DNA of 17,976 nucleotides from assembly GCF_003334385.1 (NCBI RefSeq), contig NZ_QOWN01000062.1; one strand, given 5' to 3'. The notes beneath the pieces were generated by a model. That model saw only the letters and a program-made list of their open reading frames with translations. It made no database searches and was not told the origin of the DNA. This DNA is from Escherichia coli. Lineage in GTDB: Bacteria; Pseudomonadota; Gammaproteobacteria; Enterobacterales; Enterobacteriaceae. This document shows, in pieces, positions 1,415 through 10,670 of this stretch (positions are counted from its first letter, which is position 1; each line of letters opens with the position of its first letter). A program made the translations under genes and the position numbers.

Positions 1415-1472
1415 AAAAAGGGCGGCAGAGCAGTCACGGAGTAAAACTGATACCGCCAAACGTCACCAGAAA
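1415..1472 (-). ncRNA. dicF: DicF small RNA (ftsZ-targeting antisense sRNA) with its 3' hairpin and U-run
   Basis: Reverse complement of 1415-1472 reads TTTCTGGTGACGTTTGGCGGTATCAGTTTTACTCCGTGACTGCTCTGCCGCCCTTTTT, matching DicF as I recall it, ending in a GC-rich hairpin (GGCGG...CCGCC) plus T-run. Lies between the ydfC position and dicB as in the dicB operon. Confidence 0.9.
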
Positions 1473-3140: not shown

Positions 3141-3368
3141 ATGTTTAAATCAGACGTAATTAATTTTTACGGTACGAAAGCCAAAGTAGCGAAAGCTGCT
3201 GGCGTTGACCCATCTGCTGTTTCTCAATGGCAAGAGCTGGTTCCTGAAGGTCGCGCGATGCGTCTACAGGAGGCATCTGGCGGCGAGCTTCTGTATGATC
3301 CCAAGGTTTATGACGAATATCGTAAGACGAAGCGGGCGGGGCGGTTGAACAATGAAAATCACTCCTGA
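3141..3368 (+). CDS. dicC: DicC-like (Cro-type) regulator, 75 aa
   Basis: ATG at 3141 with GGAGGTG Shine-Dalgarno. MFKSDVINFYGTKAKVAKAAGVDPSAVSQWQ...EGRAMRLQEASGGELLYDPKVYDEYRKTKRAGRLNNENHS resembles DicC. Divergent from the repressor. Confidence 0.8.
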   Translation: MFKSDVINFYGTKAKVAKAAGVDPSAVSQWQELVPEGRAMRLQEASGGELLYDPKVYDEYRKTKRAGRLNNENHS

Positions 3369-3873
3369 ACAGGCTCGTGAGGCTCTGGATGCCTGGATAT
3401 GTCGACCAGGAATGACACAGGAGCAGGCGACGATATTAATCACTGAAGCATTCTGGGCTTTGAAAGAGCGCCCGAACATCGATGTTCAGCGTGTCACATA
3501 TGAAGGTGGCGCGATTGATCAGCGAGCGCTTGGCGTTAATCGAGTGAAGATATTTGAACGCTGGAAGGCTATCGACACCAGGGATAAGCGTGAAAAGTTC
3601 ACGGCGCTAGTGCCTGCAATTATGGAGGCTATCCGGATTAATGATTTCAGGTTGTATCGTGAAATTACTGACGGAAAAAGCATCACGTGCATGATCGCCG
3701 GGTTAAACAAAGAATATGGCGATGTGGTGGAGTCCGGACTGCTTTTTGCTGATCCTGCCGTAGTGGATCGTGAAACTGACGAACTTATAGAAAAAGCAAT
3801 TGCTTTCAAACTTGCGTATCGACAGCAATACCAACAAAAAGCTGGATGGAATTATGAGCCTTCTTTTTGCTGA
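3352..3873 (+). CDS. Hypothetical 173-aa protein at the CII position (possibly YdaT-like); function not recognised
   Basis: Track ORF; ATG overlaps the dicC-like 3' end by 17 nt, suggesting translational coupling. Family assignment is a guess from gene position. Confidence 0.55.
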   Translation: MKITPEQAREALDAWICRPGMTQEQATILITEAFWALKERPNIDVQRVTYEGGAIDQRALGVNRVKIFERWKAIDTRDKREKFTALVPAIMEAIRINDFRLYREITDGKSITCMIAGLNKEYGDVVESGLLFADPAVVDRETDELIEKAIAFKLAYRQQYQQKAGWNYEPSFC

Positions 3874-4819
3874 ACGCCCACTGGTTATAAACACGCAGCT
3901 GGCAATGAAAATTGGCTTAAACGAAGCCATTGTTTTGCAACAACTGCACTACTGGTTGAGAGATACCAACTCCGGCATGGAATGTGATGGTGTTCGCTGG
4001 ATTTATAACACAACGGAACAATGGCTGGAACAGTTCCCATTCTGGTCAGAGTCAACGTTAAAGCGCGCGTTTGCAAGTCTGAAAACGCTGGGGCTTTTGC
4101 GTTGTGAAAAGCTCAATAAATCAAAGCGCGATATGACCAATTTCTACACGATCAACTATGGGTGCGAGCTTTTAGATGGTGGCAAATTGAGCGAATCCAT
4201 CGGTTCAAAATGCGCCGCTCCATCAGGTCAAAATGACACGATGGAAGAGGTCAAAATGAAACGCTCCATTGGTTCAAAACGACCCAATGTCATCGGGTCA
4301 AAATGGCCTGATGATCTTACAGAGAATACAACAGAGATTACTACAGAGAATAAAAACACTTTTCGTCCGGAAGCTTCGCAACCGGACCCGCAGACGACTG
4401 AACAGGATTTTTTAACCCGGAACTCCGACGCGGTTGTGTTTAGTGCGAAAAAACGCCAGTGGGGTAGCAGGGAGGATTTGGCGTGTGCGCAGTGGATCTG
4501 GGGGCGGATCGTGGGTCTCTACGAACAGGCAGCCAGTGATGATGGCGAGATCATGCGACCAAAAGAGCCTAACTGGACTGCCTGGGCCAATGACGTGCGC
4601 ACAATGCGGATGCTGGATGGCAGAAGCCACAGACAAATTTGCGAAATGTTTGGTCGGGTTCAGCGAGATCCATTCTGGGTAAAAAACATCATGAGCCCGT
4701 CAAAGCTCCGCGAAAAATGGGACGAACTGGTCATCCGCCTGGGACGTTCACCTGTACAGCGTTGTGTTAATCATATTTCTGAACCGGATACAGAAATTCC
4801 GCCTGGTTTCAGAGGATAA
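3854..4819 (+). CDS. Phage replication initiator / replisome-organizer protein (lambda O-like role), 321 aa from the ATG at 3854
   Basis: Track ORF 3800..4819; preferred start at 3854 (MSLLFAERPLVINTQLAMKIGLNEAIVLQQLHYWL, an HTH-like N-terminus). The gene contains five iteron repeats at 4196-4305, as ori-lambda lies inside O. Confidence 0.7.
   Translation: MSLLFAERPLVINTQLAMKIGLNEAIVLQQLHYWLRDTNSGMECDGVRWIYNTTEQWLEQFPFWSESTLKRAFASLKTLGLLRCEKLNKSKRDMTNFYTINYGCELLDGGKLSESIGSKCAAPSGQNDTMEEVKMKRSIGSKRPNVIGSKWPDDLTENTTEITTENKNTFRPEASQPDPQTTEQDFLTRNSDAVVFSAKKRQWGSREDLACAQWIWGRIVGLYEQAASDDGEIMRPKEPNWTAWANDVRTMRMLDGRSHRQICEMFGRVQRDPFWVKNIMSPSKLREKWDELVIRLGRSPVQRCVNHISEPDTEIPPGFRG
4196..4305 (+). repeat. 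Five direct iterons (core GGT(T)CAAAA(T/C)G) at 22-25 bp spacing inside the replication gene; candidate replication origin
   Basis: Core starts at 4202, 4226, 4249, 4271 and 4296, with flanks TCCATCGGTTCAAAATG, TCCATCAGGTCAAAATG, GAGGTCAAAATG, TCCATTGGTTCAAAACG and GTCATCGGGTCAAAATG. Followed at 4320-4356 by three ACAGAGA(A/T)TA repeats in an A-rich stretch. Confidence 0.6.
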
Positions 4820-4859
4820 GTGTTGATTTCAGGTCATGAGGTAATTTTAAGGGGGACTT

Positions 4860-5282
4860 GTGGCAAAAGTTTTTACACAAGAAGAGCGGGAAAAAATTAA
4901 ATGGCAGGTGGTGGAACTCGTGCGCCAGAGCGGCCGTGAGACGTTACGGCAACTGGAAGCTAAAACAGGTGCGACTAGATATCTGATGAGCGTTCTTGCC
5001 AGAGAGCTGGTAGCCAGTGGCGATGTATACAACTCCGGCTACGGGTTATTCCCCTCTGAACAGGCGCGTAAGGACTGGCAAAACGCCCGCAAAAAACTCT
5101 CGAGGGCAAAGGTGAAGAAACCTGCTTTGGTTGATCCGGACCTTATCTGGTCATCACCTGACGGAGAAATACGTCGCTACGACAGTCGCCTAAACATAAT
5201 CTGTCGCGAGTGCCGGAAGAGCGAAGTTATGCAGCGCATACTGGCTTTCTATCAGGGTAATTTTCAGGACGTGGCGCAGTGA
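4860..5282 (+). CDS. Hypothetical 140-aa protein (GTG start), downstream of the replication initiator
   Basis: Track ORF preceded by AAGGGGGA Shine-Dalgarno. Its stop overlaps the GTG start of the following methyltransferase ORF (GTGA). No recognisable motif. Confidence 0.5.
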   Translation: MAKVFTQEEREKIKWQVVELVRQSGRETLRQLEAKTGATRYLMSVLARELVASGDVYNSGYGLFPSEQARKDWQNARKKLSRAKVKKPALVDPDLIWSSPDGEIRRYDSRLNIICRECRKSEVMQRILAFYQGNFQDVAQ

Positions 5283-5725
5283 GTGCACCGGCAACCATTC
5301 TTGATATGTGCTGTGGCAGCCGCATGTTCTGGTTCGATAAGTCTGACGAACGGGCGATATTCAGCGATATCAGAAAAGAAGGATACACATTACGCAATGG
5401 GAGACGCTTGATTATCAGCCCTGACATTATCGCAGATTTTCGTGCATTATCATTTGCAGACGCATCTTTTTCGATGGTTGTATTAGACCCTCCGCATCTT
5501 GAGAGTGTTGGTGATAACGCCTGGATGGGAAAGAAATATGGACGGCTGAATAAAGATGCCTGGCGTGATGATTCGCGACAGAGATTTAAAGAAGCCTTTC
5601 GGGTGTTGAGGCCGCACGGCGTTCTGATTTTTTAATGGAATGAAACGCAAATACCGGTAAGCCAGATTCTGGCACTGACAGACAGAAAACCTGTTATCTG
5701 TCAACGAACAGGGAAAAAACGATAA
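5279..5725 (+). pseudogene. DNA amino-methyltransferase (motif I DMCCGS, motif IV DPPH) interrupted by an in-frame TAA at 5633-5635
   Basis: Track ORF 5279..5635 carries VVLDPPHLE, the D-P-P-[YFWH] catalytic motif of N6A/N4C methyltransferases, and a SAM-binding-like ILDMCCGS. The same frame continues after the TAA for 29 codons (WNETQIPVSQILALTDRKPVICQRTGKKR) to a TAA at 5723-5725. Confidence 0.5.
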
Positions 5726-5897
5726 AACCCACTGGATTATTTTTATGAAAGAGGCATCCAGTGAGTAGATTCGTAAGGCTACAGATACGTATATCTGAAT
5801 AATTAAATTCAGTTCTGTAAATAAAATTTAATCCTTAACCGGATGGATTTCTGCACCCTCAGAACATCAGGAGGCAGCCCGAAAGGGCGGTAGTGAA

Positions 5898-6080
5898 ATG
5901 CGAAAGTTCAAAATTATTATTGAAACGGGAATAGCTGGTGGAGATTTTGAGGATGTATTCGAAGTGGACGATGACGCAACACCTGAGGAAATTCATGACG
6001 GAGCATAAGAAATTTTCTTTAACTACTGCAATTACTCATACCACGAAATAAAAGACGATGAGGAAGAACAAAGTGGCTGA
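5898..6080 (+). pseudogene. Small acidic ORF (36 codons) with an in-frame TAA at 6006-6008 and a 23-codon in-frame continuation
   Basis: MRKFKIIIETGIAGGDFEDVFEVDDDATPEEIHDGA, stop, then EIFFNYCNYSYHEIKDDEEEQSG in the same frame. Manual translation. Confidence 0.3.
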
Positions 6081-6249
6081 TTTTTGTTCAGCTAAATATA
6101 ACATCAGTTTTGAAGAGCGGGATGAACTATTAATGGACTATGGTGAGTTACGCGGTGGAAGTGCTGCTGATGTCGAATCCTAGCGTGATGACTATGAAGC
6201 GGGAAAAACTCCGGTCGAAGCATATTGTGATGAGTGGGGCGATGAATGA
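6058..6249 (+). pseudogene. Small ORF (41 codons) with an in-frame TAG at 6181-6183 and a 21-codon acidic in-frame continuation
   Basis: MRKNKVADFCSAKYNISFEERDELLMDYGELRGGSAADVES, stop, then RDDYEAGKTPVEAYCDEWGDE. The terminal TGA overlaps the ATG of the next ORF (ATGA). Confidence 0.35.
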
Positions 6250-6533
6250 GCGAGATTAATTATCAGGAAGGGCATGAAACGGCGGGGCAAGCAAAACCAG
6301 TGGCATGGCGATATCGCTACGTGAAAAAAGGCGTTACGGACTTTCAGGGGAAGTAGTGGTCTGGTGACTGGAAATATGTACCGAAAAAAGAGGATTGTAA
6401 CGACAGGCCGAACTATCAAATTCAGGCCTTATTCACTGCCTCACCAGTCCCAGTTACATCAGAAGAACTGGTTAAAGCTGTGCACTTTTATGAACAACTA
6501 AAACGCGAAAATCCACCAACATCCGGCAACTAG
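6246..6533 (+). pseudogene. Small ORF (36 codons) with an in-frame TAG at 6354-6356 and a 58-codon in-frame continuation
   Basis: MSEINYQEGHETAGQAKPVAWRYRYVKKGVTDFQGK, stop, then WSGDWKYVPKKEDCNDRPNYQIQALFTASPVPVTSEELVKAVHFYEQLKRENPPTSGN in the same frame. Confidence 0.4.
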
Positions 6534-6787
6534 ATTAATGGATTAACTATGTCGGTTAAACGACCAGCCAACTGAAAAAGCGGAAACCTGATTACAGGTT
6601 GCCAGATAAGGCAATGAGCTACCTGGCGCGGAACGGACTGATAAGTATGGGGAATGTTTTACGATGAACCTTTAGACTAAAGAGTTTGTAACGCTATGTA
6701 AGTGATTTTTTCTGGTTTAGATATTTATATGTCCGGCCAAATTGAGGTGTGTTTAAATGTAATTGCACATTGATTGTAGGAGGAATA

Positions 6788-6967
6788 ATGAAAAACGCAT
6801 TGCAGTTTTTGTTTGTTGCGTTCTGGTTGTTCGCATCATGTATGCCCATCATCTTCACAGCAAGGTATATGGAAAAAGTTGATGTTTTGATATTAATATT
6901 TGGATATATAAATGCCCTTTTTTTAGGGGTGTTCATGGCGGTCATGTGCATTGAATACTGGCGGTAA
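6788..6967 (+). CDS. Small hydrophobic protein, 59 aa, two predicted transmembrane segments
   Basis: ATG at 6788 with AGGAGG at 6778-6783. MKNALQFLFVAFWLFASCMPIIFTARYMEKVDVLILIFGYINALFLGVFMAVMCIEYWR. No antisense gene explains it. Confidence 0.45.
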   Translation: MKNALQFLFVAFWLFASCMPIIFTARYMEKVDVLILIFGYINALFLGVFMAVMCIEYWR

Positions 6968-7301
6968 ATACAGCGAACTCCATTGGTTTAGTTGGATATT
7001 TACTGTGCTGGACAAAAACGGTTTGCGGGGAAATCTTAGTTAAGTAGAATGACTGCGGGTGCTTGAGGCTATCTGCCTCGGGCATGGACACCAACGGCAG
7101 ATAGAGAAAAGCCCCAGTTAACATTACGCGTCCTGCAAGACGCTTAACATTAATCTGAGGCCAATTTCATGCTAGACACATGTAGGTTAGCCTCTTACGT
7201 GCCGAAAGGCACGGAGAAGCAGGCTATTGTTAACACCAAGCTGTAATGTCCCCTTTGAACCATTCTAAAATGTCCCCAGACAATTCTCTGGGGGATTTTT
7301 C

Positions 7302-8615
7302 ATGATCAAAGAGACTGTTACGATGAGTCATAAGGAACTCCACCGACTTCAGATTATTCAGGAACAAGCTGCGGCACGCATTGGCATTTCTATTCGGCAG
7401 GTTAAACGTCTGGTGCAACGGTATAGAAATGAAGGGCCTTCTGGTCTGGTTTCCCACCGACGTGGAAAGCGTCCTAATAATTCCTTTTCTACTGAATTCA
7501 GAGCAACAGTAATTTCACTCCTCAAAGGCCGTTACGCTGATTTTGGACCTACGTTTGCGTGCGAAAAATTGCGCGAGATACACGGTTTATCTTTATCCGT
7601 TGAAACTCTCAGAAAGTGGATGATAGAAGAGGGGTTATGGCGTGAACGCCGTCGTAAAATTGCCCGTATATATCAACGCCGCATGCGACGACCATCTTAC
7701 GGTGAACTGATCCAGATTGATGGCTCACCTCATGACTGGTTTGAAAATCGAGGCCCCAGATGTACACTGATCGTTTTCATTGATGATGCCACCAGTGCGT
7801 TGATGGCGTTGCGTTTTGTGCCTGCTGAAACAACCCGGGCTTACATGGAAACCCTCCGGGGTTACCTTAATGATCATGGCGTACCGCTCGCTCTCTACTC
7901 TGATAGACACAGTATATTCAGGGTAAATAACCCAGAGCGGGAAGGTGAGCTGACCCAGTTCACTCGTGCGATAAAGACACTGGGCATCGAGCCAATCCAT
8001 GCCAACAGCCCGCAGGCAAAAGGGCGGGTAGAGCGCGCCAATCAGACACTACAGGACAGGCTGGTCAAAGAAATGCGGCTTCAGAATATCAGTGATATTG
8101 AAACAGCAAATGCATGGTTGCCGACCTTTATTGAAGCCTATAACAACCGGTTCGCTACGTCGCCTCGTACTACTGATAATGCTCATCTTGATGTGCACCA
8201 TTCTGAAGAGGAACTGGGTTATATCTTCAGCCTACAGGCGAAGCGCGTTCTGTCTAAAAATCTCACTTTCCAGTACAAAAGCAGTGCGTTTCAGGTACGC
8301 AGTGAGGGCCGGGGATATCGACTTAGGCATTCGGTTGTTACTGTATGCGAGAACTTTGACGGTGAAATTAACGTTCTGTATGACGGGAAAGCGCTGGGCT
8401 GGGAAAAGTATGTTGATGGCCCGGAGCCTATACCACTGGATGATGAAAAGAGTGTCCATGAACGAGTGGATAATGCCCGTATTGATTTACGCTCAAAATA
8501 CTATGTTAAACCTAAAGCTGACCATCCCTGGCTTACGCGCCGAACGCAAAGTCATCAGCAAGTTAAGCCCCCGAAGTTACCTAAAAAGAAGCCTGATCCC
8601 GATAAAAAAGATTGA
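7302..8615 (+). CDS. IS-element DDE transposase (integrase-core/rve type with N-terminal HTH), 437 aa; family uncertain (IS481-like or ISNCY-like)
   Basis: Track ORF with HTH-like N-terminus (IGISIRQVKRLVQRY) and candidate DDE residues in IQIDGSPHDW, IVFIDDATSA and GRVERANQTLQD. Ends of the element could not be defined. Confidence 0.8.
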   Translation: MIKETVTMSHKELHRLQIIQEQAAARIGISIRQVKRLVQRYRNEGPSGLVSHRRGKRPNNSFSTEFRATVISLLKGRYADFGPTFACEKLREIHGLSLSVETLRKWMIEEGLWRERRRKIARIYQRRMRRPSYGELIQIDGSPHDWFENRGPRCTLIVFIDDATSALMALRFVPAETTRAYMETLRGYLNDHGVPLALYSDRHSIFRVNNPEREGELTQFTRAIKTLGIEPIHANSPQAKGRVERANQTLQDRLVKEMRLQNISDIETANAWLPTFIEAYNNRFATSPRTTDNAHLDVHHSEEELGYIFSLQAKRVLSKNLTFQYKSSAFQVRSEGRGYRLRHSVVTVCENFDGEINVLYDGKALGWEKYVDGPEPIPLDDEKSVHERVDNARIDLRSKYYVKPKADHPWLTRRTQSHQQVKPPKLPKKKPDPDKKD

Positions 8616-9018
8616 AACCAAGATCGATTCGGTTGAGTGCATATCCATTCATAGGGTAGATTCTTAAGTCGCGTTTCTGGTGTTCATTTTCGGGTGGTTT
8701 GTTACTTGTTTTACCGGGGATATGCCAGAAACGCGCTGAGTCAGTCTGGGCGGTGCGCGTAATGAGGCGTTATGGTAAATAGCCTATGCTAATGTCCGCT
8801 AAGAGCAAGAAGCGGAAGTTGGCAGTTTTGTGGACTGTCCCCACAAAAGTGACTACAGAAATAGTTGCAATTCATAATTGATCATGGGTTGTCAGTTAAA
8901 CTCGTGGCGATTTAAATAGACTAATTGGGAGTGCGTCCATTACTTATATCTTGTAATGTTAACTATCAGAAATGATACAAAGATAATATGTCTTTAAAGA
9001 AAAGGCTGATGGCGAAAA

Positions 9019-9037
9019 GTGGCCCGATGAGGGCCAC
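9019..9037 (-). terminator. Candidate intrinsic terminator downstream of flxA
   Basis: Hairpin GTGGCCC-GATGA-GGGCCAC just 3' of the flxA stop; on the minus strand it is followed by a short T-rich tract (TTTTCGCC). Confidence 0.35.
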
Positions 9038-9051
9038 AATACGGCTGTCAC

Positions 9052-9384
9052 TTAGACGTAAATATCAATGGTGCCAGCGGTATTTGTATCGTCTTTTTTC
9101 TCTTCTTTTTTATCAGGCTGAACTGTCGCGTCTTCATTCTTTTTCTCTGCCTGCTGCCTTAACAACTGCTCCAGTTGAGCCCAGAGGCTTTCAATTTGCT
9201 TCTGTACCAATGCAGCCATTTCTTTTTTCTGCTGTGTCGTCATCCCCTCTTCCGATGAGATTTTCCCAAGCTTTTCAGTCAGCACCTGAATTTGTCTTGT
9301 GATTTTGGCTATTTCTGATGTTCCTTCCGGGGCGGAGTTGTTTGAAATAACGGTTGAGGTATTTCCCTGAATTGTGACAGACAT
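9052..9384 (-). CDS. flxA: FlxA (110 aa)
   Basis: Track ORF MSVTIQGNTSTVISNNSAPEGTSEIAKITRQIQVLTEKLG... matches FlxA as I recall it. AAGGAG Shine-Dalgarno and a sigma-28 promoter lie upstream. Confidence 0.85.
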   Translation of the reverse strand: MSVTIQGNTSTVISNNSAPEGTSEIAKITRQIQVLTEKLGKISSEEGMTTQQKKEMAALVQKQIESLWAQLEQLLRQQAEKKNEDATVQPDKKEEKKDDTNTAGTIDIYV

Positions 9385-9407
9385 AGATTTCTCCTTTTAA
9401 AAAAGCA

Positions 9408-9434
9408 CTATCGGCATGCACAAAAAAATCTTTA
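9408..9434 (-). promoter_or_regulatory. Sigma-28 (FliA) class promoter for flxA
   Basis: Minus strand reads TAAAGATT - 11 nt - GCCGATAG, against the consensus TAAAGTTT-N11-GCCGATAA, about 25 nt upstream of the flxA start. Confidence 0.6.
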
Positions 9435-9586
9435 ATCGTATTTCTTGTGTCATTAATTGTTTGATGTTCAGATTGTTTTCCTCGCGGGCTGGCGCGCCTC
9501 AGAAAGTAAAGCTTGTTGACAGGGGTAAACGTTCGGCAATAATTTTCTGCCGCATGCGGGTGTTGCATAAAACGTGTTACGTTCCT

Positions 9587-9892
9587 TTATCGACAGGTCA
9601 GGTCACCGCTCACCCGCCGACGAGAAAGCAACACTGACATGCTAAAGCAAAAAATAGATGAATAAGTTGAGTTGTGCATATGTAGCCTGACCGTCACAAA
9701 GTATATGGTGTCTGTACCAGTAAGATGATGGCCGGACTCTTTAAAAACGAGCTGACCTGCACAATACAGGATGGACTTAGCAATGGCTGCTCCTGGCACA
9801 AAGCGGACAGTGATCACCGTTCTTACGACTACTTTCTGACTTCCTTCGTGACTTGCCCTAAGCATGTTGTAGTGCGATACTTGTAATGACAT
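9587..9892 (-). CDS. ORF at the ydfV position (101 codons); coding status uncertain
   Basis: Track ORF MSLQVSHYNMLRASHEG... between flxA and relB; same length as ydfV in K-12 as I recall. No motif support. Confidence 0.2.
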   Translation of the reverse strand: MSLQVSHYNMLRASHEGSQKVVVRTVITVRFVPGAAIAKSILYCAGQLVFKESGHHLTGTDTIYFVTVRLHMHNSTYSSIFCFSMSVLLSRRRVSGDLTCR

Positions 9893-9905
9893 TTGTAATT
9901 ACAAG
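9881..9905 (+). promoter_or_regulatory. relO operator of the relBE promoter
   Basis: TTGTAATGACATTTGTAATTACAAG, with inverted TTGTAAT/ATTACAA repeats, directly upstream of the relB Shine-Dalgarno (GAGGTG) and ATG at 9917. Confidence 0.7.
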
Positions 9906-9916
9906 AGGTGTAAGAC

Positions 9917-10156
9917 ATGGGTAGCATTAACCTGCGTATTGACGATGAACTTAAAGCGCGTTCTTACGCCGCGCTTGAAAAAATGGGTGTAACTCCTTCT
10001 GAAGCGCTTCGTCTCATGCTCGAGTATATCGCTGACAATGAACGCTTGCCGTTCAAACAGACACTCCTGAGTGATGAAGATGCTGAACTTGTGGAGATAG
10101 TGAAAGAACGGCTTCGTAATCCTAAGCCAGTACGTGTGACGCTGGATGAACTCTGA
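9917..10156 (+). CDS. relB: RelB antitoxin (79 aa)
   Basis: MGSINLRIDDELKARSYAALEKMGVTPSEALRLMLEYIADNERLPFKQTLLSDEDAELVEIVKERLRNPKPVRVTLDEL; near-identical to RelB as I recall it. Confidence 0.92.
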   Translation: MGSINLRIDDELKARSYAALEKMGVTPSEALRLMLEYIADNERLPFKQTLLSDEDAELVEIVKERLRNPKPVRVTLDEL

Positions 10157-10443
10157 TGGCGTATTTTCTGGATTTTGACGAGCGGGCACTAAAGGAATGG
10201 CGAAAGCTGGGCTCGACGGTACGTGAACAGTTGAAAAAGAAGCTGGTTGAAGTACTTGAGTCACCCCGGATTGAAGCAAACAAGCTCCGTGGTATGCCTG
10301 ATTGTTACAAGATTAAGCTCCGGTCTTCAGGCTATCGCCTTGTATACCAGGTTATAGACGAGAAAGTTGTCGTTTTCGTGATTTCTGTTGGGAAAAGAGA
10401 ACGCTCGGAAGTATATAGCGAGGCGGTCAAACGCATTCTCTGA
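10156..10443 (+). CDS. relE: RelE mRNA-interferase toxin (95 aa)
   Basis: MAYFLDFDERALKEWRKLGSTVREQLKKKLVEVLESPRIEANKLRGMPDCYKIKLRSSGYRLVYQVIDEKVVVFVISVGKRERSEVYSEAVKRIL. ATG overlaps the relB stop (ATGA). Confidence 0.92.
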   Translation: MAYFLDFDERALKEWRKLGSTVREQLKKKLVEVLESPRIEANKLRGMPDCYKIKLRSSGYRLVYQVIDEKVVVFVISVGKRERSEVYSEAVKRIL

Positions 10444-10514
10444 ACCAAAGCATGACATCTCTGTTTCGCACCGAAGGTGACACTTCTGCTTTGCGTTGAC
10501 AGGAGAAGCAGGCT

Positions 10515-10670
10515 ATGAAGCAGCAAAAGGCGATGTTAATCGCCCTGATCGTCATCTGTTTAACCGTCATAGTGACGGCACTGGTAACGAGGAAAGACCT
10601 CTGCGAGGTACGAATCCGAACCGGCCAGACGGAGGTCGCTGTCTTCACAGCTTACGAACCTGAGGAGTAA
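10515..10670 (+). CDS. hokD: HokD (RelF) Hok-family membrane toxin, 51 aa
   Basis: Manual translation MKQQKAMLIALIVICLTVIVTALVTRKDLCEVRIRTGQTEVAVFTAYEPEE; GGAGAAG Shine-Dalgarno. Under 60 aa, so absent from the ORF track. Confidence 0.9.
   Translation: MKQQKAMLIALIVICLTVIVTALVTRKDLCEVRIRTGQTEVAVFTAYEPEE

Follow-up and report, generated by a model that had tools for sequence, protein, structure and literature searches.

The stretch of DNA analysed here (the window) comprises 17,976 nucleotides of Escherichia coli contig NZ_QOWN01000062.1 (RefSeq assembly GCF_003334385.1) and represents a Qin-type lambdoid prophage, whose counterpart in strain ATCC 8739 is 99.6-100% identical across most of the sequence from position 3240 on and about 97% identical on the dicB side. 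It carries on its plus strand a short open reading frame (ORF) with the product MKNALQFLFVAFWLFASCMPIIFTARYMEKVDVLILIFGYINALFLGVFMAVMCIEYWR, which an earlier note on this DNA had described as a 59-aa ORF with two hydrophobic segments and an AGGAGG Shine-Dalgarno (SD) sequence; the coordinates of that description are exact, and hydropathy and AlphaFold2 agree on the two segments. As set out below, comparison with a diverged second copy argues that the ORF is very probably a real gene, encoding an inner-membrane helical hairpin. The elements at the ORF are the following.

6778-6783, plus strand: SD sequence AGGAGG, with a 4-nt spacer to the ATG; AGGGGG is a common allelic variant
6788-6967, plus strand: coding sequence of the 59-aa membrane protein (ATG 6788-6790, TAA 6965-6967)
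6918-6924, plus strand: T7 homopolymer within the ORF, the site of +1 frameshift alleles with 55-aa products (e.g. P0022 and P0024)
6694-6951, minus strand: antisense 85-aa ORF, a chance ORF and no gene

The length of the ORF and its SD are by themselves not beyond chance. The surrounding 3 kb contains 28 ORFs of at least 30 aa, the 85-aa antisense ORF among them, and the window has two cases of an AGGAGG followed 3-9 nt on by an ATG, where 0.59 would be expected. What sets the ORF apart from chance is the comparative evidence. The SD reads AGGAGG in 126 and AGGGGG in 75 of about 200 prophage loci that were fetched, a set in which some contigs occur twice.

A diverged second copy points to a constrained reading frame

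A tblastn search of plasmid records retrieves a 59-codon relative in two large E. coli "plasmids" that are really chromosomal segments. This paralog lies in a prophage remnant of about 2.3 kb in the Rac attachment region, flanked by ttcA and uspF, and its protein, MRKILMYLCISIWIVISCVPIILTSEYLTEASIMALMFGHANALCIGVFISIIYIECWR, is 41% identical to the ORF product over the full length, without a gap and with matching start, stop and length. A lack of frame conservation in related sequences had been named beforehand as a possible refutation of the gene; the frame is conserved at this distance. The two copies align over 180 nt at 59% DNA identity with no gap, whereas their flanks need several indels, and recent gene conversion as a source of the agreement is excluded by the 41% nucleotide divergence.

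The differences between the copies follow the frame. Specifically, identity at the three codon positions is 35, 43 and 29 of 60, and the Nei-Gojobori proportion of nonsynonymous differences (pN) is 0.34 compared with 0.72 for synonymous ones (pS; Fisher p = 8.7e-5). Under a frame-blind null, in which the 73 differences fall at random sites, the frame stays open in 2.6% of trials, and an open frame together with the observed amino-acid identity arises in 0.02% (p = 2.2e-4). The five alternative frames all contain stops in one or both copies. Thus frame, start and stop are conserved and nonsynonymous differences are proportionally fewer than synonymous ones, as expected of a coding gene, and long-term purifying selection on the ORF is clear from this comparison.

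The second copy also bears on the start codon. In the paralog, an SD (AGGGA) lies 6 nt ahead of the ATG and a TAA closes the frame 7 codons before that ATG, and in the window the GTG at 6749, from which some pipelines start a 72-aa product, is without a usable SD; therefore, the ATG at 6788 is the start. The antisense frame was considered as the real gene and ruled out, since it contains stops in the paralog and its pS and pN are about equal. Nevertheless, two phages, PhiR42_1 and vB_EcoS-640R1, have it annotated in GenBank as "hypothetical protein" and "hornerin", and PV340562 and ON470612/ON470619 are records that carry an annotated antisense ORF of 84-85 aa and leave out the gene on the plus strand. 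Judged from the comparison of the two copies, this annotation is a misannotation.

Predicted structure of the product

The ORF product is strongly hydrophobic (grand average of hydropathicity, GRAVY, 1.27), with hydrophobic stretches at about residues 4-24 and 33-55, and Kyte-Doolittle profiles show two peaks in both paralogs. The AlphaFold2 model places helices at residues 2-24 and 30-58. Two hydrophobic helices of about 20 residues each, joined by a short loop, are what a helical hairpin consists of, and hydropathy and AlphaFold2 both point to this arrangement:

6797-6859, plus strand: predicted first transmembrane helix (codons 4-24; hydropathy and AlphaFold2), with invariant W13, S17, C18, P20, I21, I22 and T24
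6884-6952, plus strand: predicted second transmembrane helix (codons 33-55; hydropathy and AlphaFold2), with invariant G39, A43 and G47 spaced four residues apart

Twenty residues are invariant across the two subfamilies that the copies represent. Besides those of the first helix they comprise M1, L5 and L8 in the N-terminal half and L36, F38, G39, N42, A43, L44, G47, E56, W58 and R59 in the C-terminal half, N42 being an invariant Asn in the middle of the membrane-spanning part of helix 2. The N-terminus is basic (MK or MRK), and the C-terminus follows the pattern E-x-W-R (E-Y-W-R in the window ORF) with no charged tail. Charges in the loop, residues 25-32, cancel out in the Qin type (R26, E29, K30, D32), and in the type found in the ttcA-uspF remnant the charged loop residues are all acidic (E26, E30). 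From this charge distribution and the positive-inside rule, both termini would be cytoplasmic and the loop periplasmic. A Gly/Ala face plus a mid-membrane Asn favours tight helix-helix association. On a reading of the motif, G39, A43 and G47, which fall on one face of helix 2 with Asn42, form a candidate packing surface.

An uncharacterised family of two deep branches

Searches for further relatives return nothing past the two subfamilies, whether by word-indexed single-sequence and profile searches of 5.8 billion proteins or by an exhaustive HMMER search of 1.84 billion cluster representatives, and a pattern scan of 100,044 species genomes has as its sole match a mis-binned "Collinsella" contig. 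The ORF is without a family match in Pfam (to E <= 10), PHROGs, NCBIfam, PADLOC and the sequences of the PDB, and neither paralog matches a PADLOC defence family at E <= 1. The best profile match, TIGR03647/DUF4212 (E = 0.03-0.08), lies below the cutoff and was rejected as compositional. Foldseek against BFVD gives no significant structural neighbour (best E = 0.9), and a hairpin of 59 residues is too simple for fold matching. A further carrier of the remnant-type subfamily in an intact prophage was sought in IMG/VR, which yields only the same remnant. As judged from these comparisons, the ORF belongs to an uncharacterised family with two deep branches, the Qin type and the ttcA-uspF remnant type, and the family is of a familiar kind, that of small hydrophobic accessory proteins of phages and of enterobacterial microproteins that lack annotation (PMC11188072).

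Both types are common within a narrow host range. The Qin-type copy occurs in 1569 of 5426 complete E. coli genomes (about 29%) at 95% identity or more, and the remnant-type copy in 1045 of them (about 19%), nearly always at 99% identity or more; the exact ORF sequence is found on at least 1000 contigs. Despite this, the ORF is annotated in none of the RefSeq records sampled (40 per copy type), although database entries made by other pipelines exist under the names "hypothetical protein" or "membrane protein". In IMG/VR, the 59-codon frame is intact in 115 of 117 loci (98%) picked solely by the SD and the first four codons, and one locus is truncated just past the T7 run. K-12 is without the Qin-type copy owing to a 4,799-bp deletion that corresponds to window positions 3632-8430 (the Rac region of K-12 lay outside this check).

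Apart from two stray records, both subfamilies are confined to lambdoid prophages of E. coli and Shigella. One of these records, NZ_CP069920.1, is 9.5 kb long and labelled as a Klebsiella oxytoca plasmid; its ORF has 96.6% protein identity and could reflect horizontal transfer, a phage fragment or mislabelling. The other, JAIJJM010000167.1, is a contig of a "Collinsella sp." metagenome-assembled genome that carries a 59-aa ORF 100% identical in protein to the E. coli prophage gene, and is almost certainly a binning contaminant.

The ttcA-uspF remnant itself (positions 4984-7169 of the paralog locus L085), present in about 19% of E. coli genomes, Nissle 1917 among them, retains the C-terminal part of an integrase, the paralog with its 59-aa frame intact, 66 nt from the 3' end of hok and a multi-pass membrane ORF that is truncated and by eye resembles a transporter permease fragment. 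The gene tables of two PLSDB entries, both incomplete, annotate nothing in the ttcA-uspF interval, and the absence from RefSeq reported above covers the ORF alone.

Prophage neighbourhood of the ORF

The ORF lies between decayed genes and an insertion sequence, as the earlier note had it, with two pseudogenes upstream and an ISNCY transposase downstream; the orphaned 5' half of a hok/sok locus also intervenes. Beside these degraded neighbours its own frame of 59 codons stays open, again in agreement with the note. The neighbouring features are:

5898-6080 and 6246-6667: RefSeq pseudogenes 5' of the ORF, mapped from the ATCC 8739 record (99.6% identical)
7057-7227, plus strand: orphaned 5' half of a hokW/hokD-type hok/sok locus (leader, mok start and sok region; Rfam RF01794, 104 bits)
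7228-10501, plus strand: IS1202-family transposon of 3274 bp, which splits the ORF and the hok leader from hokD
7302-8615, plus strand: ISNCY transposase gene (437 aa; NCBIfam ISNCY_2, 456 bits)
9052-9384, minus strand: flxA, transposon cargo
9587-9892, minus strand: ydfV, transposon cargo
9917-10156, plus strand: relB, transposon cargo
10156-10443, plus strand: relE, transposon cargo
10515-10670, plus strand: hokD, the 3' half of the split hok locus, 100% identical to K-12 hokD

In ATCC 8739 the order runs from dicB and dicA-dicC through a ydaT-like gene, a replication gene, a DUF977 gene, a methyltransferase and the two pseudogenes to an unannotated gap that holds the ORF, and onward through the ISNCY transposase, flxA, ydfV, relBE and hokD to the rest of the prophage. 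Rfam identifies in the window DicF (1420-1471, minus strand), two cspA 5' untranslated regions (UTRs) and the 5' part of hok/sok. This orphaned hok half is cut at the hok start codon, and its full-length RF01794 match ends in AUU rather than AUG. A plausible hok promoter, TTGCGG-N17-TAGAAT, is seen at about 7023-7051, just upstream of the orphaned hok leader.

The original arrangement is preserved in the intact phage vB_EcoS-640R1 (L003), with which the window is collinear up to L003 position 6441. Here, three small co-directional genes (one of PHROG 1997, one of PHROG 519 and one without a PHROG match) are followed by a 230-nt spacer, the ORF, about 200 nt and then mok/hok of the hokW/hokD type. 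A block of about 1 kb upstream of the ORF is common to all fetched loci, and the region farther upstream is mosaic. The order of ORF and then hok holds in all 84 Qin-type loci examined, of which 51 have an intact hok and 31 the insertion seen in the window. A fragment of the hok 3' end, 80% identical, also lies 55 nt downstream of the remnant-type copy, so the order of ORF then hok predates the split of the subfamilies. An obligatory link between the two was considered and ruled out, since hokW-type hok/sok occurs in 110 phage records and the ORF in just 3 of them.

Transcription signals and RNA elements

Consensus scans covered the spacers from the upstream genes through the ORF to hok. In neither the window nor the intact phage do they detect anything there that resembles a promoter or a terminator, and the first plus-strand terminator that they report lies after hok. 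The ORF is therefore unlike an autonomous "moron": it has no promoter or terminator of its own by these scans and travels with the upstream block of about 1 kb and with hok. Accordingly, its description as a stand-alone gene does not hold; the isolation is an effect of decay, and in intact phages the ORF is the last gene of a co-directional cluster. The SD, which had been taken to argue for expression, makes translation of the ORF possible but does not show that expression takes place.

No Rfam family covers the ORF on either strand. On the minus strand, the consensus scan finds no promoter-like site in the Qin-type window and several 9-of-12 matches to the promoter consensus in the AT-rich paralog locus. 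The SD and 5' region fold no better than shuffled sequences (z = -0.7 and -0.3). Thus the features of a type I toxin-antitoxin locus are not seen, there being no antisense RNA family and no sequestered SD, as far as these weak consensus scans reach. One non-coding element upstream of the ORF is conserved:

6657-6702, plus strand: conserved non-coding element about 90-130 nt upstream of the ORF, kept in the paralog locus (L085 5867-5915)

This element contains the 13-bp palindrome CTTTAGaCTAAAG (6670-6682), which reads CTTCAGtCTGAAG in the paralog locus, with one compensatory change. Its fold energy is unexceptional, and in 13 of 25 haplotypes its outermost bases no longer pair; a role as a binding site for a protein is possible. 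Additionally, a minus-strand terminator-like hairpin, AACCTGTAATCAGGTT with a T-rich tail, is seen at 6585-6600, about 95 nt past the antisense ORF; it is not kept in the paralog locus and has polymorphic sites within its stem.

Recent variation in the Qin-type gene

Alleles from the same set of about 200 Qin-type loci, in which some contigs are represented twice, segregate at 10 sites within the ORF, all 10 of them nonsynonymous and none synonymous, and the flanks are more variable. The replacements are A16V, M28I, V31I, I37M, Y40H, A43V, L44I, V48G, F49S and M53T. The major alleles, A16V and V31I/I37M/Y40H, are at intermediate frequency, the common changes are conservative, and I37M and Y40H restore the residue of the paralog. 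A ratio of 10 to 0 is compatible with neutrality (p about 0.1).

Candidate functions

In the reading that we favour, translation would begin at the ATG at 6788, served by the AGGAGG or AGGGGG SD, and the product would be a 59-residue inner-membrane hairpin. In intact phages the ORF closes a small co-directional cluster of nin-like accessory genes and stands directly upstream of a hokW/hokD-type hok/sok locus. Since no promoter or terminator of its own is recognisable by the weak scans applied, transcription probably reaches it by read-through from the early-right operon of the phage, in which case it would be expressed mainly during lytic development and not in the lysogen. The protein probably acts within the membrane by helix-helix packing, through the G39-x3-A43-x3-G47 face with Asn42 and a Ser17-Cys18-x-Pro20 patch; its partner would then be either other copies of itself or a host inner-membrane protein, whose activity it would modulate. 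We propose tentatively, as a possibility that is well short of established, that the ORF encodes an early-operon accessory protein of the phage that associates within the membrane with itself or with a host membrane protein. It would in this respect resemble the small inner-membrane regulators of E. coli and the hydrophobic enterobacterial microproteins (PMC11188072), which are likewise shorter than 70 aa, unannotated and without a Pfam domain, and which are likewise expected to act by binding larger membrane proteins. However, most characterised small regulators have one helix and belong to the chromosomal core or a regulon, whereas the ORF product has two predicted helices and is borne on prophages found almost entirely in E. 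coli and Shigella.

Several observations weigh against this proposal. The AlphaFold2 model was built on a small, shallow alignment and its confidence is only moderate (mean pLDDT, the predicted local distance difference test, 72.5), and the Gly/Ala spacing with Asn42, read as a motif, suggests a candidate interface only. The scans for promoters and terminators rely on simple consensus matching and are blind to weak promoters or those of alternative sigma factors. Homopolymer frameshifts occur in a minority of database alleles, in the T7 run and neighbouring runs, with alleles P0019 and P0025 carrying a like +1 slip in adjacent G and A runs. The recent ratio of 10 to 0 differs from the long-term ratio of 48 nonsynonymous to 25 synonymous differences (McDonald-Kreitman-type Fisher p = 0.03), and recent history may be one of either relaxed constraint in decaying prophages or diversifying selection, which fit equally well. 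Finally, no direct sign of transcription, translation or membrane localisation was found: the peptide strings of neither paralog appear in the searchable literature of 8 million papers or in two supplementary data sets, those of an enterobacterial microproteome study (PMC11188072) and of a ribosome profiling (Ribo-seq) study of enterohaemorrhagic E. coli.

An alternative that we consider unlikely is a small membrane toxin, GhoT/OrtT-like or type-I-like, that depolarises or permeabilises the inner membrane. Size and architecture fit (59 aa, two helices, high hydropathy), and the hok toxin locus adjoins the ORF in both subfamilies. A G-x3-A-x3-G pattern with a mid-membrane Asn is also typical of self-associating pore-forming helices. 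GhoT and OrtT, two-helix toxins of 57 aa (PF10753), resemble the ORF product in length, helices, tiny soluble termini and an SD of their own, but they show no sequence similarity to it (no Pfam match at E <= 10 and none in NCBIfam), they are chromosomal whereas the ORF is prophage-borne, and no GhoS-like antitoxin gene adjoins the ORF. Hok/Gef proteins (hokW/hokD) are, like the ORF product, small hydrophobic inner-membrane peptides, and belong to the same prophage module. However, Hok has one helix and a periplasmic domain and is controlled by mok/sok and by folding of its mRNA, whereas the ORF has two predicted helices, an exposed SD and no antisense RNA; the absence of a Pfam match at E <= 10 and of a periplasmic domain separates it from Hok_Gef (PF01848). 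More generally, no toxin family in Pfam, NCBIfam or PADLOC matches the ORF, and the locus has no antisense RNA family, no structured 5' UTR that hides the SD and no candidate antitoxin gene beside the ORF. Of all copies, 98% have an intact ORF, including copies in cryptic prophages in which hok has been destroyed by insertion or deletion; since it stays intact even there, an unguarded toxin with a strong SD is not what we would expect.

We regard as rather improbable a superinfection-exclusion or anti-phage factor that blocks DNA entry at the inner membrane. A small prophage-borne inner-membrane protein, intact in two decayed prophages, would suit such a role, and polymorphism made up of replacements only could reflect an arms race. 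On the other hand, expression in the lysogen would need an autonomous promoter, and the scans found none; PADLOC returns no match; and the ratio of 10 to 0 is not significantly off neutrality, with swaps that are conservative and hydrophobic. A related and bolder reading sees a hairpin under diversifying selection that meets other phages or Hok at the inner membrane, and would make the ORF and its paralog a new exclusion or immunity family of the nin-hok module in Qin/Rac-type prophages, one that RefSeq would have overlooked in about a third of E. coli genomes. We give it little credence, but keep it in view because all 10 segregating sites are replacements and because hok adjoins the gene in both deep branches.

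There is only a slight chance that the ORF product is a functional partner of the adjacent Hok, as a membrane-level modulator or immunity factor. The order of ORF then hok, shared by both diverged subfamilies and by all of the Qin-type loci examined, speaks for a partnership, whereas the rarity of the ORF among hokW-type phage records and its survival where hok has been destroyed speak against it. Furthermore, the regulation of Hok is fully accounted for by mok and sok.

The phage 21 pinholin S21-68 and its prophage homologs EssD/EssQ resemble the ORF product in having two helices, an N-in/C-in topology and small residues four apart, and the earlier note had listed holin-like proteins among the possibilities. 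A holin, pinholin or antiholin acting in lysis timing would agree with the two helices, the predicted N-in/C-in topology and the spacing on helix 2, but it is disfavoured to the point of being very improbable: the lysis cassette (equivalents of essD-ydfR-rrrQ-rzpQ) begins more than 6 kb past the ORF, at about 13.3-14.7 kb in window coordinates, so that the ORF lies outside it, and the product has neither a charged C-terminal tail, nor the dual start of these holins, nor a match to a Pfam or PHROG holin family.

That the ORF is no gene at all, either a chance hydrophobic ORF in an AT-rich spacer (GC content 0.37-0.39), of the kind that AT-rich intergenic DNA readily yields (PMC11188072), or the reverse strand of an antisense 85-aa ORF that is the real gene, is scarcely credible: the lack of annotation in the sampled RefSeq records and of a synonymous excess in recent polymorphism would agree with it, but the frame-specific constraint between the paralogs, borne out by the permutation null, and the exact start, stop and length amid flanks that gather indels run against it.

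A probable origin of the K-12 relBE-hokD arrangement

The transposon downstream of the ORF gives a side result of its own. A perfect 15-bp direct repeat, GGAGAAGCAGGCTAT, flanks the 3274-bp unit at 7213-7227 and 10502-10516, and the repeated sequence is the hok SD together with the first two bases of the hok ATG. The 26-bp ends match at 19 of 26 positions when inverted (TGT...ACA), and the site is found empty at 51 of 84 prophage loci, as it is in thousands of E. coli genomes. In its repeat, ends and transposase the unit agrees with the long-duplication subgroup of the IS1202 family (PMC10132070). It therefore looks as if one transposition event made the relBE-hokD arrangement of K-12 and detached hokD from mok/sok; among 30 sampled rows of a search for the relE-hokD junction, none places relE and the right end beside any other flank. 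In the Qin prophage of K-12 MG1655, ydfW (window 8466-8615) corresponds at 100% identity to the final 49 codons of the transposase ORF of 437 aa, and ydfX to the beginning of the ydaT-like gene, which is truncated there.

Significance

The gene is sound but a fairly ordinary small phage accessory gene, and not a surprising one. As a side result, the transposon explains how relBE came to stand next to hokD in the odd arrangement of K-12. The ORF illustrates an annotation gap, being a conserved small membrane protein gene that is absent from the sampled records of RefSeq and its annotation pipeline (PGAP) while its two types occur in about 29% and 19% of E. coli genomes; since K-12 is without the Qin-type copy, small-protein surveys centred on K-12 could not have found it. 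Taken together, the family offers a defined target for work on small proteins and phages, with a clear start codon, two natural paralogs, a set of natural alleles, and point mutants at N42, G39 and G47 through which the putative packing surface of helix 2 may be approached.

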